Origin: Candidatus Daviesbacteria bacterium
Lineage (GTDB): Bacteria > Patescibacteriota > Microgenomatia > Daviesbacterales > UBA10151
Assembly (NCBI GenBank): GCA_030699125.1
Contig: JAUYKM010000011.1
Span: forward strand, 36,937-100,936
DNA length: 64,000 nucleotides
Direction: 5' to 3'
Shown: piece by piece, positions 832 through 62,690 of the stretch
How positions within the stretch are numbered: the first letter of the stretch is position 1
Layout of the letters: every line of letters starts with the position of its first letter
Position numbers and translations under genes: made by a program
The notes under the pieces: model-generated
Database searches by the model: none
Told to the model about the DNA's origin: nothing
What the model saw: only the letters and a program-made list of their open reading frames with translations

Positions 832-846
832 TTTAATAAATCTCCC

Positions 847-1206: not shown

Positions 1207-1221
1207 AATATGACTTTATCA

Positions 1222-1546: not shown

Positions 1547-1598
1547 ATATTACCAGATATTACCTAATATTGCCTAATATTGCCAGATATAGAATAAA

Positions 1599-1994: not shown

Positions 1995-2190
1995 CCTTTA
2001 CCTCGCCAGTATATATAGTGGCTATGTGTGTTCCCTTAGGAAGAGTAGGAATCCTCTTATAAAGTTCATAACGATTTTTACTCGCCATAATAGGTTTTAC
2101 ATCTACTAGCTGATTTAGCTTATCCTGTTTTAAAACTTCGGCCAAAACCCAAGTGTTTTTATATTTTTTATTCACTTCGGAGATTTTCAT
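1960..2190 (-). CDS. Hypothetical 76-aa ORF immediately upstream of, and overlapping by 35 nt in the +1 frame, the retropepsin-like ORF
   Basis: The +1 overlap contains U-UUU-U and A-AAA-U runs. It may be the N-terminal part of a frameshifted protease gene. Confidence 0.3.
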   Translation of the reverse strand: MKISEVNKKYKNTWVLAEVLKQDKLNQLVDVKPIMASKNRYELYKRIPTLPKGTHIATIYTGEVKGAFLFYVPAKI

Positions 2191-2212
2191 AATTTCATTA
2201 TAGCACAGAAAA

Positions 2213-2270
2213 ATTCATTCAAATGTGGAATGGTTAAGAAGAGATAAAGAGAGAATTAAATCCTCCTTGA
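2213..2270 (+). pseudogene. Diverged ~58-bp duplicate of the pepN 3' end
   Basis: nt 2213-2270 (ttcaaatgtggaatggttaagaagagataaagagagaattaa) align with nt 776-830. Confidence 0.55.
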
Positions 2271-2303
2271 CAAAGTAGTACCAAATATAGTACCATTTAT
2301 GTA

Positions 2304-2537
2304 GTGACTAAGCGAGAGAAAAGAGTTAGAAAGCTCTTTCAAAATCCAAAAACAGTTCCTTTTAAAGAATTGGATAGAGTTTTAAAAGATGCTGGTTTTA
2401 AAATGAGACAGCCTGGGTCTGGCAGCAGTCACTCTGTTTATACAAAAGGAGAAATTCAAATCTCGGTGCCTTTCAGAAGGCCTTTTGTAAAAGAAGTGTA
2501 TGTTAAAAGAGTTTTGGAATTATTAGGAGAAGAATGA
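2304..2537 (+). CDS. hicA: HicA toxin (mRNA interferase, YcfA-like)
   Basis: 77-aa basic protein with HicA-like SH3/dsRBD pattern (GSGSSHSVYTKG); overlaps the hicB start. Confidence 0.75.
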   Translation: MTKREKRVRKLFQNPKTVPFKELDRVLKDAGFKMRQPGSGSSHSVYTKGEIQISVPFRRPFVKEVYVKRVLELLGEE

Positions 2538-2884
2538 GAAATAAGAATCTTAAATATTATCTCAATTTAGATTACACTATCCGCCTTAAACAAAACGTGG
2601 ATGGAAGTTATTTTGTGGAAATTGAAGAATTACCTGGTTGTATGAGTGAAGGTGATACAAAGATGGATGCTTTGAAGATGATTGAAGATGCCAAAAAAGC
2701 TTGGTTGGAAGTTGCGTTAGCAAGAAAAATAAATATTCCTGAACCGGAAAAAGATGAATTTAGTGGTAAATTAAATGTTAGAATGCCCAAATTCTTGCAT
2801 AGAAAATTGTCATATAAATCAAAACAGGAAGGGGTTAGTTTAAATACCTTAATTTCTACTACTCTAGCTTCCACAATCAGGTAA
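2534..2884 (+). CDS. hicB: HicB antitoxin (UPF0150 fold + C-terminal RHH-like DNA-binding tail)
   Basis: 116 aa. YFVEIEELPGCMSEGDT matches the HicB N-domain. The C-terminal KLNVRMPKFLHRKL is RHH-like. ATGA-coupled to hicA. Confidence 0.75.
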   Translation: MRNKNLKYYLNLDYTIRLKQNVDGSYFVEIEELPGCMSEGDTKMDALKMIEDAKKAWLEVALARKINIPEPEKDEFSGKLNVRMPKFLHRKLSYKSKQEGVSLNTLISTTLASTIR

Positions 2885-2973
2885 AATTCCTAGGTACGAA
2901 CCGTGTGATACATATCCTAGGTGCCTGCCTAATCCACCCCCCAGGTGTACTTCGGACATTGGCAGAATCTACG

Positions 2974-2997
2974 TTTCCACATTCGAAGTGGGAAGCT
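2974..2997. repeat. Family-A palindromic element (TTCCACATTCGAAGTGGGAAGCT), intergenic copy
   Basis: Shares CTACGTTyCCAC...TGGGAAGCT with the copies at 35372, 38300 and 41119. Confidence 0.6.
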
Positions 2998-3048
2998 AAA
3001 TTATAAAGGTGGGGATAGGGAAAAGATTAGAAAATTTTTTTCAGAATT

Positions 3049-3309
3049 TTAAGACTTAGGAGCTTCTTTTATAAAATGTTCTACTAATTGTGAGTCGCCT
3101 TCAAGAAATGTTACAAACAAAGGGGTAGGCATTTGTAGGACTATCTCTCCTTTAGAGTTTTGTAGAACCACTTCAAGATCAGCTGCTGATATTATCTTTA
3201 ATCCTCTCCGAAGAGATAAAGATTGTCTAGTCAGATCACTTACAGATTTTTGTTCTGCCTTTGCTTCAGCTTTCAGAGCAGTTAATTCAGATGAGGATAC
3301 ATCTACCAC
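3049..3309 (-). CDS. Hypothetical 86-aa protein
   Basis: ORF only; no recognisable motif. Confidence 0.3.
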   Translation of the reverse strand: MVDVSSSELTALKAEAKAEQKSVSDLTRQSLSLRRGLKIISAADLEVVLQNSKGEIVLQMPTPLFVTFLEGDSQLVEHFIKEAPKS

Positions 3310-3397
3310 TACTCTTGGTCTATCATTTCTTTCAGACTTTTTTATATTATAGGATAAAGGGTAAAAATTGTCAAGTTTATTGTCCTAAAATCTTTTA

Positions 3398-3465
3398 TTA
3401 TGCTAAAATCTATAAATTAGATCCTTCTCCCGCCTTTGGCGGGATCAGGATGACAGGAGGGGTAT
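3398..3465 (+). promoter_or_regulatory. Putative efp promoter: extended -10 (TGCTAAAAT) followed by GC-rich hairpin CCCGCCTTTGGCGGG
   Basis: TGn+TAAAAT sits 60 nt upstream of the efp ATG. The same module is duplicated at 1228-1290. Confidence 0.45.
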
Positions 3466-4029
3466 ATGGCACTAAATGTAAATGAATTAAGAAATGGGAC
3501 GTTTTTTAAAGAAGGGAAAGATATTTTTTTGGTGGTTACTTATGAACATATGAAAACTGGCCGGGGATCCGGCAATATTAAACTAAAGGTGAGGAATTTA
3601 AGATCCGGGGCAGTGGTGGAGAAATCCTTTATTACCGGAGCCCGGGTGGATGAAGCAAATGTAGAGAAAAAAAAGGCCCAGTTTTTATACCGGGATGGAG
3701 ACATTTTTAATTTTATGGATCCTGTCAGTTTTGAGCAGTTTTCAATTTCTGCCAATGTAGTAGGTGATCAGGCCAAATATTTAAAAGACGGGTTGGAGGT
3801 AACTTTGATTGTTTCTGAGGATGAGGCCTTGGGAATAGAACTTCCTTTAAGTCTGGTATATGAAATCTCGGAAACAGGCCCAGGTGAGCGGGGAAATACT
3901 ATTTCTAATGTTTTTAAAGAAGCAACACTGGATAATGGATTGGTTGTAAAAGTCCCTATGTTTATTGGTGTTGGAGAACATGTTAAGATTGATATCAGGT
4001 CAGGAGAATATGTGGAGAGAGTAAAATGA
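3466..4029 (+). CDS. efp: Elongation factor P
   Basis: 187 aa with full-length EF-P architecture and motifs (KTGRGSGNIKLKVRNLRSG, OB folds). Confidence 0.9.
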   Translation: MALNVNELRNGTFFKEGKDIFLVVTYEHMKTGRGSGNIKLKVRNLRSGAVVEKSFITGARVDEANVEKKKAQFLYRDGDIFNFMDPVSFEQFSISANVVGDQAKYLKDGLEVTLIVSEDEALGIELPLSLVYEISETGPGERGNTISNVFKEATLDNGLVVKVPMFIGVGEHVKIDIRSGEYVERVK

Positions 4030-20699: not shown

Positions 20700-21525
20700 G
20701 CTAAAGTAGGGAAGAGAGTAGTTTACACTGAGGAGCAATTGCAACGGAAAGTGTGAAAACTATAAGGAATTTTCGTGAAAAGAGATAATGATGTAGAATG
20801 ATACAGTAGACAGGCACGAATGTGGAATACTATGGGGTCTATATAAGCATAGGGATGTACACCTCCATCACCATCTGTGGATAACTGCTTATCTGCGTGA
20901 AAAATACCCGAAGCTCTATGGAGGAGGGTATTCACTTCTCGGGTCTTGCTTATATCGGATGAAAGCTGATTAGATAGGATACATTAAGTTAAATATTGTT
21001 GAGCTTTCTGGACTTCACTACTCTCGGACGATTTACTAAACTTCCCTGCATTTTAATGTCGGACAATATGGGGGTGAATAATTTGGCCGGAGGAGACCCA
21101 AACCTGATAAAGTTAATTTAAATAAACAAAAAAGGAACATTTTATCTAAAATTTAGTGGTGCATATTTTGGGAGGTTCCCGATCAATTTTTTTCAAGTTA
21201 TAGATTCATTTCTTATTAATTTTGTTTTCATTAGATTGGGTCTCTATAACAATCTAAACATAGGATAACTCAGTATACCTCTTATCCCCCAATCAGCCGT
21301 TTTTGGGGCGTTTACGGGGCTTGTGCCTGGATAGGCTCAATAAGGGAGATAAAGGGGTTGGACGAGAAGCGTTAATGGTTTCACTCCGTTAGGATCTACC
21401 CGTTGGTAATAAGCTAACGTTACTTCAGCCCTAAAATATTATAACTCTTTGAGCTCATTTATGTACTTGACAGCCAGTTTTAAGCCTGGTATTATTCTTG
21501 TAATCAGCATTACACGAAGTCACAA
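20700..21525. other. ~800-bp non-coding region with locally elevated GC and predicted stems (possible structured ncRNA or decayed sequence), upstream of a recombinase gene
   Basis: No ORF over 70 aa. Stems such as AATACCC...GGGTATT. No tmRNA/RNase P/tRNA signatures found. Confidence 0.3.
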
Positions 21526-22519
21526 TATGCCTACTCCAACCAATAAAAATTTAAAAAATCAAACACCGCCCTCCTCTTTAAATTTAATAGATGATTTTTA
21601 TTTATTCCTGCAAACCAACAACTATTCCCCTGCTACGATTTATCATTACAAAAATGATTTAGCAATTTTTGATAATTTTTTAAAATCCAGAAATTTAAAA
21701 GTTAATGATTTGGATAAACGGTCTATATTTGAATTTAAGGCTTATTTATCATCAGATAATAGGCAAACTGCAACTACTCACCTTGAGTCTGCTCAAAGGT
21801 TATCCTCAGCAAGTATAAACAGGTGTCTTTCTGCGGTTAGGGCTTATATTCGTTTTTTGATAGATCAGGATTATCAAACACCGGTTTTTCCTGAACAGTT
21901 TAAGATGGTTAAAAGAGAGCGTTCTCACCCGAACGTTGCAGAGTTTAGCGAGTTAGTTTCTCTTATTGAATCTCCATCAACTATTGAACAAGACCCGATA
22001 ATCGCTGCACGCAATAGGGCAATTCTGGAAGTTTTATTTGCAACGGGTATGCGGATATCAGAGCTGGTTTCCTTAAACAGGAGAGATTTAAATGTTGAGG
22101 GGAAAATATTTATAACAGGAAAAGGGCGGAAACAAAGGTTTGTTTATCTGACAGAGCGGGCTCAGTCTTACTTGGATCAATATTTGTTAATTAGGAAGGA
22201 TAACCAGCAGGCTTTATTTGTTCCAACGAAAACAAGAAGTAAAGATAAACTTTCCTCCAGATTAACTCCCAGATATGTTCAGGAGAGACTTAAGACTTAC
22301 AGGGAAAAACTAAGAATAAACCTGCCAACTACACCGCATTCTTTCCGTCATGGTTTTGCAACATATTTAGCAGAAGAAGGAGCCTCCCCTGCTGCAATAC
22401 AAATTTTACTGGGCCATGAAAGTTTGAATACTACTACCAGATATGTAAATGCATCTGATAAGTTTGCTCAGGAATCACACCGTAAGTATCATCCTCTGGC
22501 TGAAAGATCTGGTAAATGA
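21526..22519 (+). CDS. Tyrosine recombinase (XerC/XerD-like integrase) with N-terminal SAM-like core-binding domain
   Basis: C-terminal HSFRHGFATYLAEEG...LLGHESLNTTTRYV (R-H-R-Y catalytic set). Start taken at MPTPTNKNL. Confidence 0.75.
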
Positions 22520-29493: not shown

Positions 29494-30411
29494 ATGCAAC
29501 TTTCTACCCTTATAACTGACTTTTTGGAATATCTGGAACTGGAGCGGAATGCTTCACAACTAACCATTAAAAACTATGACCATTATCTAAAGCGCTTCCA
29601 AGATTTCACAGGCGAAATTGATCCCAAAGATATTGATCTGAATTTGATCAGAAAATACCGCTTGTATCTTTCCCGCTGGAGCGATCCATTAACCAAAAAG
29701 CCTTTAAAAAGAATCACTCAGAATTATTTTATGATTGCTCTAAGAGCTTTTTTAAAATACTTAGCCTGGAAAGATATCGCCACTCTCTCAGCTGAAAAAG
29801 TGGAATTGGGAGAGCAGGATCCCAGACCTTTAAAAATTCTGGACGAGGTAGCGCTTAAGCAGCTTTTGGATGCTCCGGATGTATCAAAAAAAGATGGCAT
29901 AAGAGATAGAGCCATACTGGAAACTTTATTTTCCACCGGGCTGAGGGTGTCTGAGTTAGCATCTCTAAATACAGATACTATTAATTTAGGAAGACGCGAG
30001 TTTGGCATAATTGGCAAGGGCGGAAAGGAACGGGTGGTGTTTATATCTGATGTTGCTGCTTCTTGGTTGGAAAAATATCTTAACGTGAGAAAAGATACAT
30101 TCAAGCCTTTATTTATCAGGTTTCAAGGTAAAGTAGACCCTGCTGAGAGTGGTGAGGCCATGAGGCTTACTTCCCGCTCCATTGAGCGGATTGTGGAAAA
30201 ATACGTTAAAAAGTTAGGCTTGAGTGTTAAAGCTACACCGCATACCCTACGTCACTCATTTGCCACAGATTTACTGATTAACGGAGCAGATATCCGCTCA
30301 GTACAAGAGATGTTGGGTCATTCTAATATTGCTACCACCCAAATTTATACCCATGTCACTAATGCCCATTTAAAAGATGTCCACAAAGCTTTCCACTCAG
30401 GCAATAAATAA
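29494..30411 (+). CDS. xerD: Tyrosine recombinase XerD/XerC
   Basis: N-terminal FLEYLELERNASQLTIKNY and C-terminal HTLRHSFATDLLINGADIRSVQEMLGHSNIATTQIYTHV. Confidence 0.85.
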   Translation: MQLSTLITDFLEYLELERNASQLTIKNYDHYLKRFQDFTGEIDPKDIDLNLIRKYRLYLSRWSDPLTKKPLKRITQNYFMIALRAFLKYLAWKDIATLSAEKVELGEQDPRPLKILDEVALKQLLDAPDVSKKDGIRDRAILETLFSTGLRVSELASLNTDTINLGRREFGIIGKGGKERVVFISDVAASWLEKYLNVRKDTFKPLFIRFQGKVDPAESGEAMRLTSRSIERIVEKYVKKLGLSVKATPHTLRHSFATDLLINGADIRSVQEMLGHSNIATTQIYTHVTNAHLKDVHKAFHSGNK

Positions 30412-35053: not shown

Positions 35054-36388
35054 TCATTTAAAAACTTTTTGGACAGCCTCATTAAATTTTCTTCCCCTGT
35101 CAAATTCGTTTTGGAATAAATTAAAGGAGGTGGCAGCTGGAGAAAATAGGACTATGTCACCTGGTTTAACTTCAGCCTTTACATCAGATAGCAACTTTTC
35201 GAGATCATTATAGAGACCAAATATTTGAACCTGCAAACCGGGTTTGTAGCTTCGTATTAGGTCAGTAGCGTCTCCTTCCAGGAAAAAAACTTTTTTACAA
35301 TTTTTACTGACAACTTTGGTGAATGCTTTATAATCCATTCCTTTATTCATCCCCCCACAGACTAAAACTACGTTCCCACTTCCGATATGGGAAGCTGTTT
35401 TTATGGCCTGGATACCTGCTTCAGGAGAAGTGGCTGTGGTGTCATTGATGATTTTTACACCATTCCATGTTTTTATAAGTTCCATCCTAAACGGAACACC
35501 CTTAAATTTGGCCATCGTTTGCAATGCCTGCCTTTGTGGAATTTTAAAAATCTTTGCCACTGATAAAGCTGCTGCTATATTTTCCCGATTATGTTGTCCT
35601 AATAAGTTTGGATGAAAGTCTTTGGGTAAATCATCAGCTGAAAAATAAATAATTTGACCCTTTAATCCTTTTAAGAAATGATTTTTAGTAGTTACTGGTT
35701 CATTTTTTCTTAAGAATAAGAAATCTTGTGCAGTCTGATACTTACCAATAATTCTTTTGGCAGCAACATACTCCTTCATGTTGGAGTAATAATTAAGGTG
35801 ATCCGGAGTGATGTTTGTTATTACCGCCCACCTGGGAGAAACTCCATGTTTATCAAATGCTTCCAGTTGAAACGATGATATCTCCAAAGCCACCAAAGAG
35901 TTTGGGCTAACATGTTTAGTAATGTCTAAAACACTTTTACCAATGTTTCCAGCCACTATTACATCTTCCCCCCCTGCTTTGAGAGTCTCAAATATTAATG
36001 AGGTAGTGGTGGATTTGCCTTTGGTACCTGTGACACCAATAATTTGTGAAGGGTTAACATGCTCCAAAAATATTCCCATATCCATCTCCACTCTTTTCCC
36101 GATTTTGGTGGCATATTCAATGTATGAGTTATTAGGTTTTACAGCTGGGTTTTTAATGATCAAATCAGCCCAGTCAATATCCTTATTTTCATGTTCACCT
36201 AATGTGTATTCAATATCGGGAAACCTTTTGAGTTTATCAATTGATGGCTTCAAAACTTTAGCATTCTTTAAATCGGTTATCCTCACCCGGGCACCCAAAG
36301 ATGCAAAAAACCTGGTAGATCCCACTCCTCCTTCATTTAATCCTAGCCCGAAGATAAGGACTTTTTTATTCTTAAACTTATTATCCAT
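35054..36388 (-). CDS. murD: UDP-N-acetylmuramoylalanine--D-glutamate ligase
   Basis: GTKGKSTTTSLI P-loop and Mur ligase domains. In-frame family-A element at 35372-35394. Confidence 0.9.
   Translation of the reverse strand: MDNKFKNKKVLIFGLGLNEGGVGSTRFFASLGARVRITDLKNAKVLKPSIDKLKRFPDIEYTLGEHENKDIDWADLIIKNPAVKPNNSYIEYATKIGKRVEMDMGIFLEHVNPSQIIGVTGTKGKSTTTSLIFETLKAGGEDVIVAGNIGKSVLDITKHVSPNSLVALEISSFQLEAFDKHGVSPRWAVITNITPDHLNYYSNMKEYVAAKRIIGKYQTAQDFLFLRKNEPVTTKNHFLKGLKGQIIYFSADDLPKDFHPNLLGQHNRENIAAALSVAKIFKIPQRQALQTMAKFKGVPFRMELIKTWNGVKIINDTTATSPEAGIQAIKTASHIGSGNVVLVCGGMNKGMDYKAFTKVVSKNCKKVFFLEGDATDLIRSYKPGLQVQIFGLYNDLEKLLSDVKAEVKPGDIVLFSPAATSFNLFQNEFDRGRKFNEAVQKVFK
35372..35394. repeat. Family-A palindromic element in frame in murD (encodes ASHIGSGN)
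   Basis: TTCCCACTTCCGATATGGGAAGC on the + strand. Confidence 0.6.
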
Positions 36389-37214: not shown

Positions 37215-38481
37215 ATTCTCTGGCCATTTTATCTATATCCCCTGCTCCCATAAAGAAAATAATTTCTCCACTTTGCACATGTAGTTTTAGCATTGGTAGG
37301 AGTTGATCCTTACTGTGATACACTAGAGTATCTCTGCCTACAGTATCTGCCAGTTGTTTAGATGTGATTAGTCCAGTATCTACTTCCCTGCTGGGATAAA
37401 TATCTGTAATAATGATTTTATCAACCGGGAGACTTTTAAAAACTCTGACAAAGTCATTAAATAGAACTTTGGTTCGGGAGAACATATGTGGTTCATATAT
37501 GAGGATAATTCTTTGATCAGGAAATTTTTCCCTGGCAGCTTGCATGGTTTTTTCAATTTCACTGGGGTGATGTCCAAAATCAGAATAAACTTTGGCTCCA
37601 TGGTAGGAGCCGATATACTCAAATCTTCTCCCTACCCCCTCATATTTGGACAAACTTTTCTTGATGGTTTGTGGATCAATTTTAAGTAGTAGTCCAACCT
37701 GGAGGGCAGCTTGAGCATTTAACCTATTAAACTGGCCAGGAATTTTTAGCTTAAAATCTATAGGTTTTTTAGAATAGTCTAAATTTGTATTGACACCCTT
37801 GGGGTGTACAGTCAAAATTTCAGAAACTACAAGGTCAGAAAGATTGGCGACAATTTTCTCTCTTGTTTGAGCCAAAAACTTTTTAAAGCTTTCTTTATAA
37901 GCTTCAAAATCCTTAAAATATTCCGGGTGGTCCATTTCAATATTGGTGACAACTGTAATCTCAGGATAGAGAGATAAAAAATTATCGTTAAATTCATCTG
38001 CCTCAATAACAAAATATTTAGGCTTCCCTGCCCTGTAATTTGCCTTCCACTTTGGGTATATTGCACCTAATAAAACAGTGGGATCTAACCCCGAGTCCTC
38101 CAGAATTTGAGCAATCATGGCTGTGGTGGTAGTTTTTCCATGTGTTCCGCATACAGCGATCACAAATTTATCTTTGACTAAATACTTCCCCACAAACTGT
38201 TGCCAGGTAAGGATGGGTATCCCCATTTTTTTTGCCTGCAATAACTCTGGATTTTGTGGATCTAAAGAAAAGATAGCAGGAGTAACTGTCAATAAATCTA
38301 GCTTCCCACTCGACATGTGGGAAGCTGAATGACCTTTTAAAAACTGGGAGGATTTAAATTGAGTGGTAAATTCATTATGAGGTTCAAGGTCACAGCCAGT
38401 TATTTCAAATCCTTGGGCTTGAGCAATGGCTGCCGCAGCAGATGCCCCGGATCCACCTATCCCCAAAAAATGCACTTTCAT
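37198..38481 (-). CDS. murC: UDP-N-acetylmuramate--L-alanine ligase
   Basis: HFLGIGGSG and AVCGTHGKTTTTAM motifs. In-frame family-A element at 38300-38326. Confidence 0.9.
   Translation of the reverse strand: MKVHFLGIGGSGASAAAAIAQAQGFEITGCDLEPHNEFTTQFKSSQFLKGHSASHMSSGKLDLLTVTPAIFSLDPQNPELLQAKKMGIPILTWQQFVGKYLVKDKFVIAVCGTHGKTTTTAMIAQILEDSGLDPTVLLGAIYPKWKANYRAGKPKYFVIEADEFNDNFLSLYPEITVVTNIEMDHPEYFKDFEAYKESFKKFLAQTREKIVANLSDLVVSEILTVHPKGVNTNLDYSKKPIDFKLKIPGQFNRLNAQAALQVGLLLKIDPQTIKKSLSKYEGVGRRFEYIGSYHGAKVYSDFGHHPSEIEKTMQAAREKFPDQRIILIYEPHMFSRTKVLFNDFVRVFKSLPVDKIIITDIYPSREVDTGLITSKQLADTVGRDTLVYHSKDQLLPMLKLHVQSGEIIFFMGAGDIDKMAREFIQIN
38300..38326. repeat. Family-A palindromic element, perfect 10-bp arms (AGCTTCCCAC-TCGACAT-GTGGGAAGCT), in frame in murC (encodes ASHMSSGK)
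   Basis: Direct reading of the sequence. Confidence 0.65.
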
Positions 38482-41001: not shown

Positions 41002-41715
41002 TCATAATTCCTTTGGCATAGATAGCATTAAATATTCCAGAATGGCTCGGATATTAACATTTTGAGCAGCCCACTGCTCAGCTTGCAAAAGTTCCTTCAA
41101 GAAATTCTTATAATCCGTGTTCCCACTTGTCAAGTGGGAAGCTAGATTTTGGTGAAAGTAGCTCACCAAAGAGTGTAAAAATTCTTTCCTGTCTTTTAAT
41201 TTTTCAATATATTCAAATCTTTGCTCAACAGAAATCCTTAAAAGCCTTTCTACGTCCTGAGAATAATCTTTTTCCTGTAAACTGCCGCCTTTGGCGAGCC
41301 TCGCCTCTGGCGGGTAACCTGTAACCTGTAACCTGATTATTTGGCATCTAGACAGAACCGTGGGTAAAAGTTTGGACTCAGAATCTGTGGCCATGATAAA
41401 TATAGCATCTTCGGGCAGTTCCTCCAAAGTTTTTAATAAGGCATTTTGAGCCTCTTCAGTTAGATTGGAAGCCTCTTCTAAAACTACTGCTTTGCCCTTT
41501 GATTGCAAAGGCTTAAAAGAGAGGTGTTTTTTGATTTCTCTGGCTTGTTCTATACCCATTTTTTGAGTTGAATCCAGATAAAGCAGATCAGAATGAGGGT
41601 TGCTCGTACCAGCTTCTTTCAAGATCTCTCCAATCTTTCTATTTATTTTTTCTAAATCAGCTGAAATTAAAAGTTTGGCAATCACATTTTGGATAATACT
41701 TGATGATTGACACAA
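41002..41715 (-). CDS. holB: DNA polymerase III delta' subunit-like protein (short form)
   Basis: IFIMATDSESKLLPTVLSRCQI (SRC sensor motif). Carries an in-frame family-A element and a CCTGTAA x3 tandem. Confidence 0.6.
   Translation of the reverse strand: MCQSSSIIQNVIAKLLISADLEKINRKIGEILKEAGTSNPHSDLLYLDSTQKMGIEQAREIKKHLSFKPLQSKGKAVVLEEASNLTEEAQNALLKTLEELPEDAIFIMATDSESKLLPTVLSRCQIIRLQVTGYPPEARLAKGGSLQEKDYSQDVERLLRISVEQRFEYIEKLKDRKEFLHSLVSYFHQNLASHLTSGNTDYKNFLKELLQAEQWAAQNVNIRAILEYLMLSMPKEL
41119..41143. repeat. Family-A palindromic element in frame in holB (encodes ASHLTSGN)
   Basis: GTTCCCACTTGTCAAGTGGGAAGCT. Confidence 0.6.
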
Positions 41716-47928: not shown

Positions 47929-48495
47929 TTGACACTAGAGTCAAACTCTTTCATACTAATATTAGTGAATATTTTACTGCCCCTGAGCGAGACTTCGACG
48001 GTGAGCTCAGTCGAACCGCGAAGTGAGTCGAAGGGTTTTACCCTGATAGAACTGTTGGTGGTGATCTCCATAATTTCCATTTTGGCTACCATCGGTATTG
48101 CTTCTTACCAAGGAGCCCAGAAAAACGCCCGGGATGCCAGACGTAGAAATGATGTAGATGTAATTGCCAAATCATTGGAGGTAAACAAGGCTCAAAATAC
48201 CCTTTATTACCCTATAATTGATCCCACCTGGTTTGAATCAGGTGCTGTACCCATAGATACCACTACTGCCAAATATTGCATTCTGTATAGAGAAAGTGGA
48301 ACTATTGCCAAACCCAATACCTGGCTGACGACTGCTTCCTGTCCTCCGGCGGTAGAGGGAGATACAAATGTGGCGGCTATTCCTGCAACCGGTAATGTGC
48401 CGGTTGTTGTTCCCGGCTATGCTGTCTTTAAAATTTGCGCCAGACTGGAACAAGGTACCCAACCTAATATTTTCTGCCGCAGCAATATCCAATGA
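47929..48495 (+). CDS. Prepilin-type protein with atypically long leader containing a GC-rich hairpin sequence
   Basis: ...SESKG|FTLIELLVVISII. The 5' region carries GAGCGAGACTTCGACGGTGAGCTCAGTCGAACCGCGAAGTGAGTCGAAG. True start uncertain (in-frame GTG at ~47989). Confidence 0.65.
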   Translation: MTLESNSFILILVNILLPLSETSTVSSVEPRSESKGFTLIELLVVISIISILATIGIASYQGAQKNARDARRRNDVDVIAKSLEVNKAQNTLYYPIIDPTWFESGAVPIDTTTAKYCILYRESGTIAKPNTWLTTASCPPAVEGDTNVAAIPATGNVPVVVPGYAVFKICARLEQGTQPNIFCRSNIQ

Positions 48496-49031
48496 AAGTT
48501 AGTAGCGGTTTTACTTTAATAAGGACCTGCTTCGCTTCGCGATATGAGAAATTGTATCACTCACTCGCAGAACCCTGTAAGGGTTTTACCCTTATAGAAC
48601 TTCTCATAGCCGTATCCATTATTGCTCTGCTTATGACGATTGGCGCTATCTCTTATATGGGGTTTTTAAGAACAACCAGAGATACCTCCAGACAAACTGA
48701 TTTAAAAACTATCCAGTCTGTTTTGGAGCAATACCATGCTGATTTACACTTTTACCCCACTGCCCAATTTACTTTTGCCGGTCAAAGGTTTACCAATGCT
48801 TCAGGCAGAGCCGGAAACCCCCAGGTAACTAAAACTTATTTAAACAACACACCTAAAGAACAATGGACTCAAACTGCACCTTATTTATATGTGCCACTTC
48901 CCGCAGGATGCGGTGAAGTTGCTCCGCTTTGTTCCAACTACTGTTTATATGCTCGTTTAGAAGGAACAAGCCCTGGATTAGGCAGCTGTGCTACTCAGAC
49001 AGTTTATAACTATGCCGTCAGCCAACCATGA
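48492..49031 (+). CDS. Prepilin-type protein whose leader is interrupted in frame by a 51-nt MITE-like element plus ~19-bp duplication
   Basis: MKVSSGFTLI-[RTCFASRYEKLYHSLAEPCK]-GFTLIELLIAVSII. Removing the element plus one repeat restores a canonical prepilin. Confidence 0.7.
   Translation: MKVSSGFTLIRTCFASRYEKLYHSLAEPCKGFTLIELLIAVSIIALLMTIGAISYMGFLRTTRDTSRQTDLKTIQSVLEQYHADLHFYPTAQFTFAGQRFTNASGRAGNPQVTKTYLNNTPKEQWTQTAPYLYVPLPAGCGEVAPLCSNYCLYARLEGTSPGLGSCATQTVYNYAVSQP
48523..48573. repeat. Family-B MITE-like element GGACCTGCTTCGCTTCGCGATATGAG...CTCGCAGAACC with imperfect TIRs (GGACCTGC/GCAGAACC), flanked by direct repeats GGTTTTACYYTAATAGAA
   Basis: ~75% identical inverted copy at 58792-58846. 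Confidence 0.65.
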
Positions 49032-55895: not shown

Positions 55896-56600
55896 ATGAA
55901 TAAATCTGTCATTCTACTTTTTTATCAAAAATATAAATTAATTCTTTTTCCCCTGGCGGTGATTTTATCTTCTCTTGTCCTGATCTTTTTTGTGATCAGC
56001 CCACAGATAAGCAGGCTGCTGGATACCAATCGCAATATTGATGAATTAAGTAAAAAGAATGCATTTCTGGATGCAAAAGCTCAGGAACTGGAAGTTTTGG
56101 ATGGTGAAGATTTACAAACTAAACTTAATTTGGCTCTTTTGGCTCTACCCCAGGAAACGGATTTTGCCAACTTGATAGGTGTTATTCTTAACCTGAGTTC
56201 CCAGGCTCAATTTAGTTTGGTAAGTTTCCAAACAGATAGAGTTGATCCTAAGGCCGGATCTAAAGCATCAGCTTACGGGATAAGGCTGATCCTGAGTGGT
56301 CCAAAAGAGACTCTGGAGACACTTCTTTCTGATATTGAACAAAATTCCAGGGTGATGAAGGTGACATCAGTAGAATACACCGCTGTCAGATCAGATGAAC
56401 CAATAGATGTTCAGCTGGGCGTTGAGGTGTATTATTCGCCTATTCCCTCATCCTTGGGGGCAGTTGATACACCTTTACCTAAACTGAGTGATAAGGATGA
56501 GACAATTATTGCAACCCTGGCCAGAAATGTTCAACAATCTGCATCAGTATCTCAGATTAGTGTCAGCGGCCCCAGAGGAAAAGCTAATCCGTTTGAGTAA
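55896..56600 (+). CDS. pilO: PilO-like bitopic protein
   Basis: Position after pilN; single TM plus coiled coil. Confidence 0.5.
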   Translation: MNKSVILLFYQKYKLILFPLAVILSSLVLIFFVISPQISRLLDTNRNIDELSKKNAFLDAKAQELEVLDGEDLQTKLNLALLALPQETDFANLIGVILNLSSQAQFSLVSFQTDRVDPKAGSKASAYGIRLILSGPKETLETLLSDIEQNSRVMKVTSVEYTAVRSDEPIDVQLGVEVYYSPIPSSLGAVDTPLPKLSDKDETIIATLARNVQQSASVSQISVSGPRGKANPFE

Positions 56601-57273
56601 GTAGCTCAGGCCTGGTTTTTCTGGTTTTTTTAATACTTTGTTCCATTCTCCATTTGGCAATCTCTGCATGATTCCCTGAAAGCAAAACATCTGGAACTTT
56701 CTGGTCTTCAAACTTCTCAGGCCTGGTGTATTGTGGATATTCTAGAAGAAGTGATGAGTCAGAAAAAGATTCGTTTTCTGTTGCCTCTGGTTTTTCCAAA
56801 ACTCCTGGGATCAATCTGGTGACAGAATCTACAATCACCATGGCCGGGATTTCACCACCAGTTAAGACATAATCTCCGATGGAGGCTTCCTCGTCTATAT
56901 ATTTGTCAATAAATCTTTGATCAACTCCCTCATAGTGGCCGCAGACTATTATCAGCTGATCTAGTTTGGAAAATTCCTGAGCCTTTTTTTGTTTATATGG
57001 AGTCCCAGAGGCGGACATGAGAATAGTTTTAAGTTTTAAGTTTTCAGTTTTAAGTGATCTAACTGCTTTAGCTAACACATCAGCTTTTAATATCATTCCT
57101 GCTCCCCCGCCATATGGCCGCCCGTCTACCACCTGGTGTTTTCCCTCTCCAAATTCCCTTAAATTAATAAGCTCAAATTTGACTTTGCCTTTAGCCTGGG
57201 CTCTTTTGAGAATAGATGAATTTAGGATAGGTTCAAAAACTTCCGGGAAAAGGGTGATGATGGAAATGCGCAT
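56584..57273 (-). CDS. trmD: tRNA (guanine37-N1)-methyltransferase
   Basis: MRISIITLFPEVF and the SPOUT knot motifs. Contains an in-frame GTTTTAA tandem (LKTENLKLKTIL). Confidence 0.9.
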   Translation of the reverse strand: MRISIITLFPEVFEPILNSSILKRAQAKGKVKFELINLREFGEGKHQVVDGRPYGGGAGMILKADVLAKAVRSLKTENLKLKTILMSASGTPYKQKKAQEFSKLDQLIIVCGHYEGVDQRFIDKYIDEEASIGDYVLTGGEIPAMVIVDSVTRLIPGVLEKPEATENESFSDSSLLLEYPQYTRPEKFEDQKVPDVLLSGNHAEIAKWRMEQSIKKTRKTRPELLTQTD

Positions 57274-57348
57274 AATAACAAGTAACTAGTACAGTAAAGG
57301 TAACAAGTTATTTCTACTTGTCACTTGTTACTTCTGTACTTGTTACCC
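57274..57348. repeat. Iterated GTAACAAGT / ACTTGTTAC inverted repeats spanning the KH-gene stop codon to the trmD start (potential hairpin/attenuator or operator)
   Basis: Five copies in 75 bp; two copies encode VTS...VTS at the KH protein C-terminus. Confidence 0.5.
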
Positions 57349-57583
57349 CAGTCGGTTCTGCCAGAGTCAAATTCACTCTGACGTTTTCCGTAATTGCCCT
57401 CACTGTTAAAAGTCTTCTGATTGATCTGATGGTTTGTCCCCCTTTACCAATGATCAGGCCCATATCTTGAGGGTCCACTGTTAGTGTAAGATTGATTGAG
57501 CCATCCTCTTTTTGTTCATCAATTGTGATAGCATCAGGTTTAGAAACTAGGTTTTTAACAATAAACTCAAGCAGTTCCTTCAT
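57314..57583 (-). CDS. KH-domain RNA-binding protein (YlqC/UPF0109-like)
   Basis: LIIGKGGQTIRSIRRLL KH GXXG motif; sits between rpsP and trmD as in the rpsP-ylqC-rimM-trmD operon. Confidence 0.75.
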   Translation of the reverse strand: MKELLEFIVKNLVSKPDAITIDEQKEDGSINLTLTVDPQDMGLIIGKGGQTIRSIRRLLTVRAITENVRVNLTLAEPTGVTSTEVTSDK

Positions 57584-58034
57584 TTTTTATTTCCTCTTTC
57601 GGTGCTTCGGCCTCCTTCTGATCCACTGATTCAGTGGCTTCTGATTCTACCTCTTTTGCAGGGGCTTCTTTTGTTTTTTGTTCATCTGCGGGTTGTTCTG
57701 ATGAGGTTGGTTCAGCTGTTTCTGTCTTTTCTGCTATCTGAGGACTGATAGCTGCTGGCTGTTCTTCTTTCTTTTCCTTCTTAGGCTTTCTGGGTAGCCT
57801 TTGGGGGGCTTTGCCAATAATTCTTAAAAATCCAGTACTCATCTGGGCTCCCTGCTTTGTCCAATGATCAATTCTATCTTGCTTAAGCTTGATATCTTTT
57901 GGTTCGGTTAAAGGATTATAAGTTCCCAAAAGTTCCAAATAAGCACCGGTTCTTTTGGCCCGTTCATCAACCACTACCACCCGATAGAATGGCCTCTTCT
58001 TTGCCCCTATTCTCATTAAACGGATTTTTAACAT
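57567..58034 (-). CDS. rpsP: 30S ribosomal protein S16 with Ala/Glu/Lys-rich C-terminal extension
   Basis: MLKIRLMRIGAKKRPFYRVVVVD... Confidence 0.9.
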   Translation of the reverse strand: MLKIRLMRIGAKKRPFYRVVVVDERAKRTGAYLELLGTYNPLTEPKDIKLKQDRIDHWTKQGAQMSTGFLRIIGKAPQRLPRKPKKEKKEEQPAAISPQIAEKTETAEPTSSEQPADEQKTKEAPAKEVESEATESVDQKEAEAPKEEIKNEGTA

Positions 58035-58052
58035 GGAGGTAAGTATAAAGGA

Positions 58053-58466
58053 TTAGTGGATATCTTTCAATAGCTGAACGAACTTGAATTTTGTAGCTCC
58101 AGCAAACTTTTCATCAGCCGTGATCAACCTTGCCTTATATTTCTTAGCAACAACTGCATATAACATATCATAAACTGAAGTATGATACTTTTTAGCTAGG
58201 CGCGATGCATCTTTTAGATCTTTTTCCACCGGATGATAAATATGTAAGTCTATCTGATAAAGTCTGGTTAAGGCGTTGGTTATTTTCCAAAGGCTAATAA
58301 TACCTTTTGTCACTAAGGTATTGGCAACCTCATAAAAAAGAAATTCAGGAACAAGAGTTTCCTGGGTTTGTAATATGTGGTTTCGAAAGATTTTAGAAGC
58401 GAGGAAGTGACCCTCTTCATGAGGTAGAAACAGTTTGTTAGCAACCGAAGCATCTATGACGGTCAT
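58053..58466 (-). CDS. vapC: PIN-domain ribonuclease toxin (VapC-like)
   Basis: MTVIDASVANKLF N-terminal Asp plus downstream acidic residues in a PIN arrangement. Confidence 0.7.
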   Translation of the reverse strand: MTVIDASVANKLFLPHEEGHFLASKIFRNHILQTQETLVPEFLFYEVANTLVTKGIISLWKITNALTRLYQIDLHIYHPVEKDLKDASRLAKKYHTSVYDMLYAVVAKKYKARLITADEKFAGATKFKFVQLLKDIH

Positions 58467-58736
58467 TTAGGAATACCTGATCTCGCGTAGGGCTTTCACA
58501 GAGTCAAAATCCTTACCTACCTCTTTGGAAATTTCTCTGCCAAGTTGTTCTAGCTCTTTCATGAATTTATCTACGTCTTTGATTTTCCTGTTTTTAACTT
58601 CCTTTTCTTTGTCGATGTTTTTAGAAGTAGCTTCACGTACTATTTTTGCCAGACTTTTTCTTTCTTTGAAAGCCTTAAGCTTGAGCTTCTTATATTGATC
58701 CTCAGGAAACCTGATGTTGGTGGATACCCAGTTCAC
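58467..58736 (-). CDS. Ribbon-helix-helix (CopG/VapB-like) antitoxin
   Basis: Abuts vapC. STNIRFPEDQYKKLKLKAFKERKSLAKIVREA is an RHH pattern. Confidence 0.55.
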   Translation of the reverse strand: MNWVSTNIRFPEDQYKKLKLKAFKERKSLAKIVREATSKNIDKEKEVKNRKIKDVDKFMKELEQLGREISKEVGKDFDSVKALREIRYS

Positions 58737-58791
58737 GTTTTTAATTCCTCCTTAAAAATATAATAGCCTTAGAATTAAAAAGGCAAGGTTC

Positions 58792-58846
58792 TGCAAGCAC
58801 GAGCTAAAATATCTCATAGCGAAGTGCGAAGCAGGTCCTTATAGTA
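58792..58846. repeat. Family-B MITE-like element, intergenic inverted copy of the 48523-48573 element
   Basis: GGTTCTGCAAGCACGAGC...GCGAAGTGCGAAGCAGGTCC; ~75% identity to the reverse complement of the pilin-leader copy. Confidence 0.6.
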
Positions 58847-58868
58847 TATTGGTATTATTATACCATTA

Positions 58869-58946
58869 TATAATGATACTAAAATTAGTCAAACCACTGA
58901 ATGGCCTCTTCTTTGTCCCTATTCTCATTAATCTAATTTTTAGCAT
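58869..58946 (-). pseudogene. Diverged duplicate of the rpsP 5' end (MLKIRLMRIGTKKRPFS...)
   Basis: nt 58899-58962 are ~85% identical to nt 57987-58050. Confidence 0.6.
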
Positions 58947-59271
58947 GGACATAAGTATAGCTTAAGCTGGATCAAGCGTCAATAAAGAAACTAGAATTAT
59001 AAACGACCTATAATATTGATATTTAAATTCAAATTTGATAAAATTAACAATAATATGGTTGAAAATAAGGATAATATTTATTTTGGAGGTATTTACTTTG
59101 ATCAAAGAAAAGGTTTGGAAGGTGTCGTGAAGCTCCTTGTTTCTAGCCTGCTTGCACCTGGTGTAGCCCAACTGCCAGATCCTCCACGCTTACCAGATAC
59201 TAGGGAATATTTGTATTTAAAAAATATCTATGATTTATGCCAGACCTACCAAAAAAAAGGTGGTAGAGTAA

Positions 59272-60434
59272 TGAGTCAATATAGTCCTGTTGATCGACTG
59301 TTCGGCGACAATGATCAAGAGTATTTTATTAATAGGTATGTTCATGAGGTAGTAGGTTCTTCAGACTATATAAAGAAAAGAAGAGCATATCCTTTATTAT
59401 CATCTTTATCAAAGAGAGTAGAAGAATTAACTCGTAGAAGTCAGAACCAGTTAGTAATAACTGTATACAACCGTGCCTTAGAAGCTCTTTATAGTCAAGT
59501 TTGTACTCCCGATAGGGTTTTGGTAAGTGTTGATAAAAGGCCTCTTTGGAGGCTGGTTAACTTAAGGCAAGTTACAAATGAGGAATTTGATACCCAATGG
59601 AGCGAGATTATAACTCAAATACCAAGAAGGCTACATGAGTTAACGCCATCAATGTTACCAGTTATTCCGGATTATTTTCTCACAAAGGACGATTTAAGGA
59701 ACTTATCTATTCCACACCCACTTACTCCAGTGGAGGACTCTTTGGAAGAGGCATATTACAGAAAACATTTTATTGTACCTCCAGAGGGTGCTCAAGTTTT
59801 CCTAAGGAATGGTGGAGATTTAGAAGGGTTTGTCTTAATGGAAAAAGATAATAACATTTGGGCTAAAGCTCAGACCACAAAAGGTGAATATATCATTCGC
59901 TTAAATCTCGATGATGCAACAATAGAGAGGCAAGAATTAGAAGGACAAGGAAGATTAATTCCTGAAAAGATGAATGATCTAACTAGAATGTTAGCATTAG
60001 TTTATAGAGATCTGGTAGTTTCAGAAGATGTGCTGTCACAAAGAAGGTCTAAAACTTTGAGAACTTCAGAAGAAACTAAAGAACAGGAACCCAAAAAGTA
60101 TGAATGGGTTTATATTCCCAGAAAAAGAAGAATTAAACCATTAATCAGATCTACCGATAAAGACAACGATCAGCATCATCGATCTCCAAGACCTCATAAA
60201 GTCTCCGGATTTAAGAGAAAAGGGGATATTACTGCTAAACATGAGATAGAGATTAGAGATTTTGAGAAGGAAACAGGTATAGCCATACTTAAAAATCTTC
60301 CTGAGGGTTACACATTTGTTAGACCACATGTTAGACCTAAAAATTCACTCGAAAGCGAATTAGCAAAATTACCGAAATTTATCAAAAGGAAAATTGAGGA
60401 AGATATTAAGGGGCCTATTACTATTCAACTCTAG
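59272..60434 (+). CDS. Hypothetical basic protein
   Basis: SD AAGGTGG 7 nt upstream of ATG 59272. The six-frame ORF extends to 59016, but that extension has a weaker start context. Confidence 0.4.
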
Positions 60435-60497
60435 AAATTATTTGGTCTACCTCTTCAAATGCCTCTTTGGCTGATTTTTATGCTATTTTTGGCAATT

Positions 60498-61961
60498 TTA
60501 CAATCTTATTGAGGTAACCTTATTTCCTCCATTTTCAGGGGGAAGGGAATTTTTATAAAATTCTCTTTCAGCTGCACTTATTTTTTGTAAGATCCTGGTA
60601 ATAAAGACCTTGGTATTGCCTTTTGTCAAAACATTAATGGAGCATTGTACATTATCCCAGAGTTTCTCATCCTGTTCACTCCAAAGACTTCTCAATTCTT
60701 CTGACTGCGCCTCTCCCTCCACCTTTCTAAAGGCCGATCTAAACATATCCTTAAGTTCGGCGGCCTGATATACCTTAAGTCTTTTGCCACCTTCGGGTGC
60801 GTCAGTAATCCTTTCGTCAGAAAAAAGCTCTTTTTGCAGAGTTTCGAAATGTAATCTTTTCTTGTCAAGAATAGTAGAGGTAATATAATTTAATAACTTA
60901 TTCTCCAGTCCGGTTCTGGGATTATCCTTAATTTGTTCAGTTGAGTTCGTTGGTTCTTCAGGCGGGTTAATTAACTGGATTTGAGCTTTTAGTAAATAAC
61001 CCTTATTGGTAGTTACCAGAATTGTTGGATGTTTAGGATCCCGCTCCAGTTTCTCACGCAGCCTGGAAATAGTTACTCTTATGGATGCTGGTTTTACGGA
61101 GCTGGTCTGTGACAGGAGATCCGGGTCAAATGGAGTTTGGGGATGTTTGTTAAATGATATTAATACTGCCTTCTCATTCCGGCTAAATCTCACGGGTCTC
61201 CTATCAAAGGAATTCCTTCCATTCTTTTGTTGATCTATGATGATCAGGGGTAATTGTCTTGCCAATTCCTTGAGGGTAAATCTTGTCTCCCCTTTTTGTT
61301 TTTCTTGAAGAGTATATTCTTTGTCCGGGGCAATCAATATACCTGCATCTTCTAAATTTTTATTAGTTCTTTTTTTGAGAGATTCTACTGCGGTTTTTGA
61401 TAAACTTAATTCCTGAGACATTTGCTCCAAAGTTAAGGATGGACCACTATTAAGCAACAGAATCATTCTCATCTGTTGCGCAGATGAGAATTGAACTTTC
61501 CTGCCATCGGGCAGTTGAATAGTTTTACCATCTGCAATGAGCATGGGAAAAATCGGTTCTTGAGCTGTTTTTATAGTCCCTAATATTTGGGTTGCTGCCT
61601 CTTTGGCAAATCTGGCTTGTTCGGGGCTCAGTCGATTGGATCTCTCCAATTGAGAGACTTGTTTAAGAGAGATCTCTAATTTAGATATCTGAGAAAGTCT
61701 TTCCCATAGGATATCTCTTTGTTTCTCCAGATAAGGTAAAGTTTGTGTTGCATATCTCTCAGAAGAGTTCCCTACTCTGATTGTTCTTGAGACTATCTCA
61801 AGAGGATCTTTAGTATGTTCGGGATTGAGTCCGGGTGGAAGTTGGCTGTTATCTCTAAGCCTTCCTAAAGTAGCATCCTTTCTGCCTAAGGCAGATTGAT
61901 ATTGATCATATTTTCTCTCCAGCTGCTTTTTGGGTAAAGAAAACAATTCCTGCTCTTTCAT
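60498..61961 (-). CDS. DNA-binding protein with C-terminal-type OmpR/PhoB winged helix (no receiver domain) plus additional HTH
   Basis: SIRVTISRLREKLERDPKHPTILVTTNKGYLL matches the OmpR trans_reg_C consensus. Confidence 0.5.
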   Translation of the reverse strand: MKEQELFSLPKKQLERKYDQYQSALGRKDATLGRLRDNSQLPPGLNPEHTKDPLEIVSRTIRVGNSSERYATQTLPYLEKQRDILWERLSQISKLEISLKQVSQLERSNRLSPEQARFAKEAATQILGTIKTAQEPIFPMLIADGKTIQLPDGRKVQFSSAQQMRMILLLNSGPSLTLEQMSQELSLSKTAVESLKKRTNKNLEDAGILIAPDKEYTLQEKQKGETRFTLKELARQLPLIIIDQQKNGRNSFDRRPVRFSRNEKAVLISFNKHPQTPFDPDLLSQTSSVKPASIRVTISRLREKLERDPKHPTILVTTNKGYLLKAQIQLINPPEEPTNSTEQIKDNPRTGLENKLLNYITSTILDKKRLHFETLQKELFSDERITDAPEGGKRLKVYQAAELKDMFRSAFRKVEGEAQSEELRSLWSEQDEKLWDNVQCSINVLTKGNTKVFITRILQKISAAEREFYKNSLPPENGGNKVTSIRL

Positions 61962-61997: not shown

Positions 61998-62690
61998 TTA
62001 AAAAGTCAACTTTCTTAAAGCTTCTTTGGCACCCTTTTCTTCTGCTTCCTGTTTGGAAGAGCCTTCCCCCCTCCCCATCTCTTTCCCTTCCAAATATACA
62101 CCCACCAAAAACTGCTTAGCATGGTCAGGGCCATAAGTTTTTAAAGTTTTATAAACGGGAGATTGTTTTAATTTTTCCTGAGCCAGTTCTTGCAAAGAAG
62201 ATTTGGCATCCTGAGGTGGGCCATGTTTGATTTCATCCTCAAATATAGGTAGAAGAATCCTATCCACCATTTTTTTGGCTCCTTCCATGCCTTGGTCTAA
62301 ATAAACTGCACCCAAAAGTGCCTCAAAAGTATTGGCCAGAAGCTGAGGATTTTCCCTTCCTCCTCCCATCTCCTCACCTTTAGAAAGTTTTAAATATTTG
62401 CCCAAATTCAACCTTTGAGCTGCCTGAGCCAGCGACTTTGTTTTGACAATGTAAGCTCTTAAATTGGTTAAATCCCCCTCAGCATCAGCCTCCCTTACCA
62501 AAAATAAATACTGTGATATTAAAAGAGATAAAACAGAATCCCCTAAAAACTCCAGCCTCTCATTGGATTTTAAAGGGGCCTTGACCTCATTTAAAAAAGA
62601 TCTGTGAATAAAGGCCTGACTAAGTAATTGGGTATTTTTAAAGCGGATCTGAAGAAATTTTAACAGGTTGGAAAAATCATCATTTGCCAT
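61998..62690 (-). CDS. rnc: Ribonuclease III
   Basis: ERLEFLGDSVLSL signature plus C-terminal dsRBD. Confidence 0.9.
   Translation of the reverse strand: MANDDFSNLLKFLQIRFKNTQLLSQAFIHRSFLNEVKAPLKSNERLEFLGDSVLSLLISQYLFLVREADAEGDLTNLRAYIVKTKSLAQAAQRLNLGKYLKLSKGEEMGGGRENPQLLANTFEALLGAVYLDQGMEGAKKMVDRILLPIFEDEIKHGPPQDAKSSLQELAQEKLKQSPVYKTLKTYGPDHAKQFLVGVYLEGKEMGRGEGSSKQEAEEKGAKEALRKLTF

Follow-up and report, generated by a model that had tools for sequence, protein, structure and literature searches.

The duplicated rpsP start and its toxin-antitoxin cassette

The stretch of DNA analysed here, referred to as the window, comprises 64,000 nucleotides of a Candidatus Daviesbacteria contig (JAUYKM010000011.1, assembly GCA_030699125.1). 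In it, rpsP, the gene for ribosomal protein S16 and the first gene of rpsP-khpA-trmD, is directly preceded by a putative toxin-antitoxin (TA) pair, vapB and vapC. The beginning of rpsP is found twice, once on each side of this cassette; we call the outer, truncated copy the stub. The gene order on the minus strand is rnc, an open reading frame (ORF) of 487 aa, the stub, vapB, vapC, rpsP, khpA and trmD, with an ORF of 472 aa on the opposite strand. A preliminary description of the window had proposed that a VapBC-like module, together with a miniature inverted-repeat transposable element (MITE), was delivered into the rpsP start by a mechanism that targets gene ends. The features are listed below in window positions; promoters, leaderless starts and toxin activity are sequence predictions throughout.

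56584-57273, minus strand: trmD (TrmD), 3' of khpA
57314-57583, minus strand: khpA (KH/KhpA), 3' of rpsP
57567-58034, minus strand: rpsP (ribosomal protein S16), 155 aa with a long C-terminal tail; PF00886, E=3.6e-24
57987-58047, minus strand: proximal repeat copy, with the -10 box TATACT, 7 nt, and codons 1-16 of the working rpsP
58042-58070, minus strand: predicted hybrid rpsP promoter, TTGAAA-N17-TATACT; 10/12 consensus match
58053-58466, minus strand: vapC, putative PIN-domain toxin, 137 aa; PF01850
58467-58736, minus strand: vapB, putative antitoxin, 89 aa, GTG start; abuts vapC
58737-58783, minus strand: Shine-Dalgarno leader of vapB; AAGGAGG at 58747-58753
58784-58842, no strand assigned: palindromic hairpin element of 59 nt, 'family B' of the preliminary description; second copy at 48519-48577
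58854-58892, minus strand: predicted vapBC promoter TTGACT-N16-TATAAT (hexamers 58892..58865) with overlapping palindrome TAGTATCATTATATAATGGTA; 11/12 consensus match
58866-58959, minus strand: stub, i.e. the distal repeat copy (58899-58959) with rpsP codons 1-16
58954-58982, minus strand: predicted ancestral rpsP promoter TTGACG-N17-TATACT, 7 nt before the stub ATG; 10/12 consensus match
59016-61961: variable island between rnc and the stub; 472-aa ORF at 59016-60434 (plus strand), 487-aa ORF at 61961..60498 (minus strand)
61998-62690, minus strand: rnc (RNase III); in the ancestral order directly upstream of rpsP

The two copies of the rpsP start form a direct repeat of 61 nt (57987-58047 and 58899-58959) spaced 912 nt apart, with 54/61 positions identical (88.5%) and longest identical runs of 15 and 17 nt. 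Each copy consists of 48 nt of coding sequence (codons 1-16, MLKIRLMRIG[A/T]KKRPF) and 13 nt of 5' flank holding the -10 box TATACT. In blastn, the repeat is found at E=3.5e-15 between the cassette flanks and at 7.6e-15 in a self-comparison of the whole window, where just one other local direct repeat, at pepN, is significant. Pairwise alignment of the rpsP start with its distal copy is therefore significant, and the repeat does bracket the insertion on both sides, as had been described. It is, however, 61 nt long rather than 64 nt of coding sequence, and 88.5% rather than about 85% identical. The palindromic element that had been placed at 58792-58846 is likewise present, with its coordinates corrected to 58784-58842. 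Today the stub reads as a mini-ORF of 26 codons (58866-58946, ATG at 58946) whose stop lies inside the vapB -10 box, and the working rpsP starts 18 nt beyond the end of vapC. The S16 protein ends in a low-complexity extension rich in Lys, Glu and Pro (window 57567-57800, and in the rpsP genes of L003-L016), and its total length is highly variable among relatives, from about 105 to 184 aa.

Since the window comes from a metagenome assembly and misassembly is common at repeats, a chimeric join or a collapsed repeat in the metagenome-assembled genome might be suspected. However, the same architecture is present in independent assemblies of other samples: loci L001 (Logan SRR13727534), L003 (GCA_016176405.1), L040 (ENA ERZ27284380), L041 (SRR8863439) and L043 (SRR22388125). 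These five, from different samples and pipelines, have diverged in sequence and yet have homologous junctions. Because the architecture recurs in this way, we rejected an assembly artefact, whose chance we put at next to nil.

The vapC product matches PF01850 (E=6.9e-10, 40 bits against a cut-off of 23.6) and the Pyrobaculum PIN protein PAE0151 (PDB 2fe1, E=2.6e-8). Its acidic quartet, D5, E46, D100 and D118, is invariant in 13 homologues, down to 34% identity. vapB lies directly upstream on the same strand; the two genes abut here and overlap by 4 nt in relatives. The N-terminus of VapB gives recurring sub-threshold matches to RHH_1 (ribbon-helix-helix, RHH; 8/9 family members, best E=0.0021) and to a FitA-like RHH (5/9, best E=6.8e-4), along with weak matches to the PDB chains E73 and HP0222. 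The C-terminal tail of VapB (...KDFDSVKALREIRY) is invariant in the family alignment. A single-sequence AlphaFold model of VapB was one long helix and thus uninformative, and neither VapC nor VapB nor the 472-aa ORF product had an NCBIfam match. Of the PIN toxin and RHH antitoxin originally called, the toxin clears its family cut-off, while the RHH fold of VapB is probable.

We treat the pair as a VapBC/FitAB-like type II module. It resembles such modules in its intact D-E-D-D quartet, in the small antitoxin gene immediately upstream of the toxin, and in a palindrome that overlaps the promoter, as expected for autoregulation. It differs in that VapB scores under the threshold of all curated families and VapC is without an NCBIfam match, in that the cassette is seemingly leaderless in most lineages, and in that it appears to be wired into a ribosomal-protein operon, with its 3' codons predicted to act as the -35 element of the next gene. 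Going by what is known of the family, VapC would be a PIN ribonuclease, VapB or the VapBC complex would repress its own promoter at the palindrome, and the pair would be kept by addiction at the edge of the variable rnc-rpsP gene island.

The ancestral site and the age of the insertion

A TrmD-anchored scan of species-representative genomes found related loci in Daviesbacteria and Levyibacteria. In L011, L012, L013, L015 and L016, rpsP-khpA-trmD begins about 30-70 nt after rnc. In the Levyibacteria locus L017, rnc is next to khpA-trmD, and rpsP was not picked up there by tblastn. In L011-L014 and L016, rpsP is preceded by TTGAC[GT]-N17-TATACT, with the ATG 7 nt on (L011-L014) or 8 nt on (L016), and this conserved distance from the -10 box to the ATG leads us to infer that rpsP is leaderless. 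The promoter in front of the window stub is the same promoter. Since the relatives have rnc directly before rpsP and the stub carries their ancestral promoter, both the vapBC cassette and the wider island separating rnc from the stub are insertions relative to the ancestral state, in agreement with the earlier proposal that the module was inserted at the rpsP start. The only relatives showing an empty site have TrmD identities of 62-75%. A search for strains with an identical S16 found two contigs, both of which carry the cassette; no cassette-free strain turned up.

The gap between rnc and rpsP is a variable-gene hotspot in Daviesbacteria (window 59016-61961; L003 3175-5478; L005 1-5665; L014 2-5177). 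It holds large ORFs that differ by lineage and are for the most part unrelated and without Pfam matches; some relatives have nothing there. The sole match across lineages is between the C-terminal third of the window 487-aa ORF, which also has a weak winged-helix match, and an ORF of L005 (42% identity). By analogy with the truncated pepN copy elsewhere in the window, a duplicated rnc 3' end might be expected inside the island; blastn found none. Two of the relatives, L011 (CAYLXC010000014.1) and L014 (CAZJNI010000003.1), are titled 'uncultured Gammaproteobacteria bacterium' but carry a Daviesbacteria-type rpsP-khpA-trmD block and pilO/pilN-like genes, with TrmD 71-75% identical to that of the window. 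The block follows rnc in L011 and ORFs of unknown kind in L014, and the taxonomy of both records looks wrong.

Wherever the context is readable, all PIN homologues that are 68-100% identical to the window VapC lie directly upstream of rpsP. These are P0001, P0002, P0003, P0005, P0006, P0007 and P0009, at the loci window/L001/L002, L003/L004, L005/L006, L040/L041, L042, L043 and L084. L050, whose PIN protein is only 55% identical, is also linked to rpsP. A stub with its junction after codon 16 is present in four lineages (window, L003, L040/L041 and L043), and among all fetched loci we found no further stubs outside these four. It is missing from three others (L005/L006, L042 and L050), and in these the vapB promoter comes directly after the end of some other gene. 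In a neighbour-joining tree of vapC, the in-group has a bootstrap of 96%, and the stub-bearing L043 is sister to all other in-group cassettes (97%); stub-bearing cassettes are monophyletic in 0/300 replicates. Because a stub-bearing lineage is basal and the stub-bearers never group together, the stub appears to be ancestral and later lost, and a single origin followed by loss in L005 and L042 is the parsimonious reading.

Nucleotide identity of vapBC between in-group lineages is 75-85%, which argues that the insertion is old and that the vapBC-rpsP linkage is ancestral for the clade. A recent delivery does not fit these data: the linkage is common to every close cassette lineage and to L050, and four lineages have the same junction. 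Sharing of the vapBC-rpsP linkage among relatives, three of them without the stub, in fact comes near to what the preliminary description had itself named as contrary evidence, an ancestral linkage lacking the duplicate.

A predicted hybrid rpsP promoter and a later vapB leader

Homology between the region in front of the working rpsP and the ancestral promoter starts only at the -10 box. The -10 box comes from the duplicated segment, and the -35 element, TTGAAA, lies inside the vapC codons CTA TTG AAA (Leu-Leu-Lys), making a hybrid promoter. None of the seven in-group cassette lineages departs from its hexamers, its 17-nt spacing or these three codons. In L005, vapC is one codon shorter and intergenic bases fill the spacer, so that 17 nt are kept. 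L050 has TTGCAG at the -35 position, and the homologous vapC codons of the ileS-linked relative L007, TTA CTT TCA, provide no -35 element. In the stubless L005, L042 and L050, the hybrid promoter is the sole dedicated rpsP promoter. We infer from this pattern that the hybrid promoter is under selection.

The vapB promoter carries a palindrome of the form TAGTA(C/T)CATTATATAATGGTA, the presumed VapB operator. Members of the same vapBC family also occur between ftsZ and ileS, next to Band_7/tRNA_bind genes and at many metagenome loci. In most of the ~30 metagenome members, TTGACA and TA(T/C)AAT are 16-17 nt apart, the -10 box is overlapped by a palindrome, and the ATG follows after 7-9 nt, a distance that suggests leaderless antitoxin mRNAs. 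Across the family, most members (L007 5700-5740; the sequence before the vapB homologues in L049-L080) show this promoter and operator layout, with a GGTACCAT..ATGGTACC-type palindrome. At L044 (1-2364; Daviesbacteria GCA_016186985.1), an FtsH gene near a related vapBC has intein and LAGLIDADG domains according to precomputed Pfam.

In the window and in L003, about 105 nt are inserted between the vapB promoter and the start codon. Besides the hairpin, this leader has a strong Shine-Dalgarno site together with a T-run and, at TTGCCT-18-TATATT, a weak resemblance to a promoter; a GTG start follows it. It is absent from L005, L040, L042, L043 and L050, where an ATG stands 7-13 nt past the last -10-like box of the vapB promoter. 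Since among cassettes it is confined to the window and L003, the leader with the hairpin and the Shine-Dalgarno site was added later, in an event of its own, and did not bring the cassette in; a role of the MITE in the delivery, as had been supposed, is not supported. L003 has a predicted hairpin in the corresponding position, but its stem sequence differs. The second copy in the window, at 48519-48577, is in the opposite orientation and 76% identical. Rfam gave no match to the hairpin or the leader at E up to 1. Presence in two window copies is a likeness to repetitive extragenic palindromic (REP) and MITE-like elements; the hairpin differs from these in that it does not lie at the borders of the insertion, is missing from most cassettes and has no clear target-site duplication.

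The leader (window 58737-58850; L003 5628-5731) is predicted to fold into the hairpin followed by GCCTTTTT, a terminator-like arrangement, and a further stem, also predicted, would form between the CCUUUUU tract and the Shine-Dalgarno site. Through these folds, expression of vapB driven by the two promoters further upstream could be insulated or attenuated. The other hairpin copy lies in frame within the 5' end of a pilin gene (48492-49031), between two copies of GFTLI codons (48507-48521 and 48582-48596; 12/15 identical). The N_methyl motif of the pilin is at residues 29-50, so the second GFTLI copy is the working one.

Route of insertion and competing explanations

Taken together, we favour, with somewhat better than even confidence, the reading that the locus is an old, inherited scar of a TA insertion into the promoter and 5' end of rpsP in the ancestor of one Daviesbacteria clade. 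The inserted cassette would have been self-contained, consisting of its own promoter with a palindromic operator, the RHH-like vapB and the PIN gene vapC. The event would have left the ancestral promoter (TTGACG-N17-TATACT-N7-ATG) and the first 16 codons upstream as the stub, and would have placed a second -10 box and 5' coding end downstream of vapC, before the rest of rpsP. The TTGAAA of the vapC codons, 17 nt upstream of this -10 box, would then complete the hybrid promoter, so that the essential rpsP-khpA-trmD operon stays expressed. Later, the hairpin, the Shine-Dalgarno site and the GTG start would have been added to the vapB leader in the window and L003 lineages.

Two routes could produce this arrangement. 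In one, an incoming vapBC fused to an rpsP 5' arm would undergo homologous recombination in rpsP, with illegitimate joining at codon 16. In the other, a fragment or circle carrying vapBC and an rpsP 5' arm would integrate by a single crossover. Homology-facilitated illegitimate recombination with orphaned gene-end stubs has been described for type VI secretion (T6SS), Rhs and contact-dependent inhibition (CDI) loci, and both routes are documented sources of truncated gene-end stubs beside new cargo (PMC5361080). The present locus resembles the effector-immunity arrays of these systems in having new cargo beside a conserved gene, with a truncated gene-end copy left behind, an intact copy regenerated and no dedicated recombinase involved. 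It is unlike them in being anchored on the promoter and 5' end of an essential gene, one for a ribosomal protein, in comprising one event and no array, and in having a stub whose promoter is still intact. With a shortened duplicate of the anchor-gene end next to the cargo and a complete rpsP restored, the locus looks as a homology-anchored insertion scar should.

Recombination within the rpsP 5' end can be seen directly in L040 and L041, which come from different samples. Their cassette, stub and 330 nt upstream are identical, and rpsP differs from codon 4 onward (L040 1401-1598 compared with L041 1130-1190), marking a recombination breakpoint. A possible donor layout, with the cargo directly upstream of the anchor gene and no stub, exists in L005/L006, L042 and L050. 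These loci do not settle the direction, since at least two of them, L005 and L042, seem from the cassette tree to have lost their stub afterwards. As for the lineage origin of the two repeat copies and any microhomology at the illegitimate joint, 48-61 nt carries too little signal, and the sequences at the joint have since diverged. The most likely route would be recombination anchored on rpsP homology, and a recombinase or transposase the less likely one.

Several points weigh against an inherited scar as we have drawn it. The route is read from the anatomy of the locus alone, and the same anatomy would result from insertion after a tandem duplication or from a recombinase that acted in trans. 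The S16 host phylogeny came out without resolution, so that vertical inheritance and transfer between lineages are both possible, and the shared junction could reflect a recurring site-specific process and not common descent. The stub is also better conserved than a neutral scar should be. Stubs of different lineages are 79-88% identical over 48 nt, while identity is 54-66% for the third positions of vapC codons and only 4-10/17 nt agree in the neighbouring promoter spacers. Because it evolves more slowly than neutral sites, the stub may be functional or refreshed by conversion from rpsP alleles. Conversion by the rpsP of the same genome was considered and rejected, since stubs are not consistently closest to their own rpsP copy.

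It is thus conceivable, though on balance rather unlikely, that the stub is a selected functional part, in which the ancestral promoter and a leaderless mini-ORF of 16 codons feed transcription, and perhaps ribosomes, into vapBC and rpsP. The TA pair would then be coupled to ribosomal-protein expression, and the duplication would be maintained by selection. Besides the slow divergence of the stub, the hexamers TTGACG and TATACT are intact in 3/4 lineages despite the scrambled spacer, 10/16 variable sites are third codon positions, and the lack of clear extra similarity to the resident rpsP argues against simple local gene conversion. However, L005/L006, L042 and L050 do without a stub altogether. 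The L043 stub has G10D and P15L, the L040 promoter has diverged (TTGCCT-18-TAAAAT), the L003 ATG is 16 nt and not 7 nt from the -10 box, and the mini-ORF varies in length and stop position (18-26 codons). With only four independent lineages carrying stubs, the statistics are thin and too few to decide. A more speculative combination, which we consider unlikely, is a recombinase-free 'homology-hitchhiking' element. Such an element would carry a portable rpsP promoter and 5' arm, enter related genomes by DNA uptake and RecA, regenerate rpsP with the hybrid promoter and persist by TA addiction, and its stub, with a live promoter and leaderless mini-ORF, would couple the TA pair to ribosomal-protein transcription.

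The locus could instead be the remnant of a site-specific integrative element, similar to a cis-mobilisable element (CIME) mobilised in trans, with the repeats as attL and attR. The element would supply a new 5' end for rpsP, so that the gene is restored on integration, and it would be moved in and out by a recombinase of the tyrosine or serine type whose gene lies elsewhere. Direct repeats from the end of the target gene do flank the cargo, with the intact gene reconstituted, the junction falls after the same codon in four diverged lineages, and the window has two Phage_integrase genes of the tyrosine recombinase type (21449-22519 and 29494-30411). However, these are Xer-like in architecture and more than 27 kb from the cassette, and we found no recombinase in or beside the cassette in the window, L003, L005, L007 or L040-L043, that is, in at least seven lineages. 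The cargo is just a promoter and two genes, and the repeat is imperfect, its identical runs of at most 15 and 17 nt making no long core. Among close strains, of which the two contigs with an identical S16 both carry the cassette, no presence/absence or excision polymorphism was found. Furthermore, members of the same vapBC family at L007, L044, L047 and ~30 metagenome loci have no flanking direct repeats. We therefore regard an integrative element as quite improbable.

A transposon- or MITE-like element carrying vapBC, with the repeats as its target-site duplication, is very improbable, even though the insert has direct repeats on both sides and a palindromic repeat element within. At 61 nt, the duplication exceeds the short (2-15 bp) ones expected; to our knowledge, target-site duplications of known bacterial transposases are all far shorter than this. 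No terminal inverted repeats were found at the insert ends, the hairpin is absent from most cassettes and hence secondary, and family members elsewhere lack flanking repeats. Carriage by a phage or plasmid was also rejected, as viral contigs yielded no relative.

The preliminary description had further suggested that the rpsP site and a second site between pepN and efp share an integration mechanism targeting gene termini. Comparison of the pepN-efp (700-3560) and rpsP (57900-59100) regions by blastn-short gave only chance 10-13-mers, no shared integrase or att motif was found at the two sites, and the recombinases of the window are distant. With neither a cassette recombinase nor flanking repeats at the ~30 family loci, we see no evidence for a dedicated gene-end-targeting integration system. 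The order at the second site is pepN, a 119-aa membrane ORF, the efp promoter with a 9-codon efp stub, a helix-turn-helix gene, a retropepsin-like Asp protease, a 76-aa ORF, a pepN 3' stub (42-47 nt, about 87-90% identical), HicA/HicB, a family-A palindrome, an 86-aa ORF and efp. The repeat pairs are 763-809/2213-2259 and 1228-1340/3397-3493. Since this stub order fits a single crossover with a circle, both sites may have a generic recombinational origin in common, but not dedicated machinery. A second short palindromic repeat family (core TTCCCAC...GTGGGAAGCT) has four copies in the window (2955-3002, 35354-35401, 38284-38331 and 41101-41148), one of them inside the pepN-efp island.

The locus does not reveal new integration machinery, and the cassette itself is of an ordinary VapBC type. 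Under the favoured reading of an inherited scar, it would provide a clean, datable case of a selfish TA cassette embedded in a core ribosomal operon of a Candidate Phyla Radiation bacterium without breaking the operon. The old promoter would survive as the stub, and a new one would have been built from toxin codons and a duplicated -10 box. The rnc-rpsP gap emerges as a hotspot of variable genes in Daviesbacteria, and the conserved geometry of the locus offers evidence for a leaderless-looking rpsP start. The hybrid promoter and the unusually conserved stub of 16 codons are the details that stand out, and the latter is the point worth following up.

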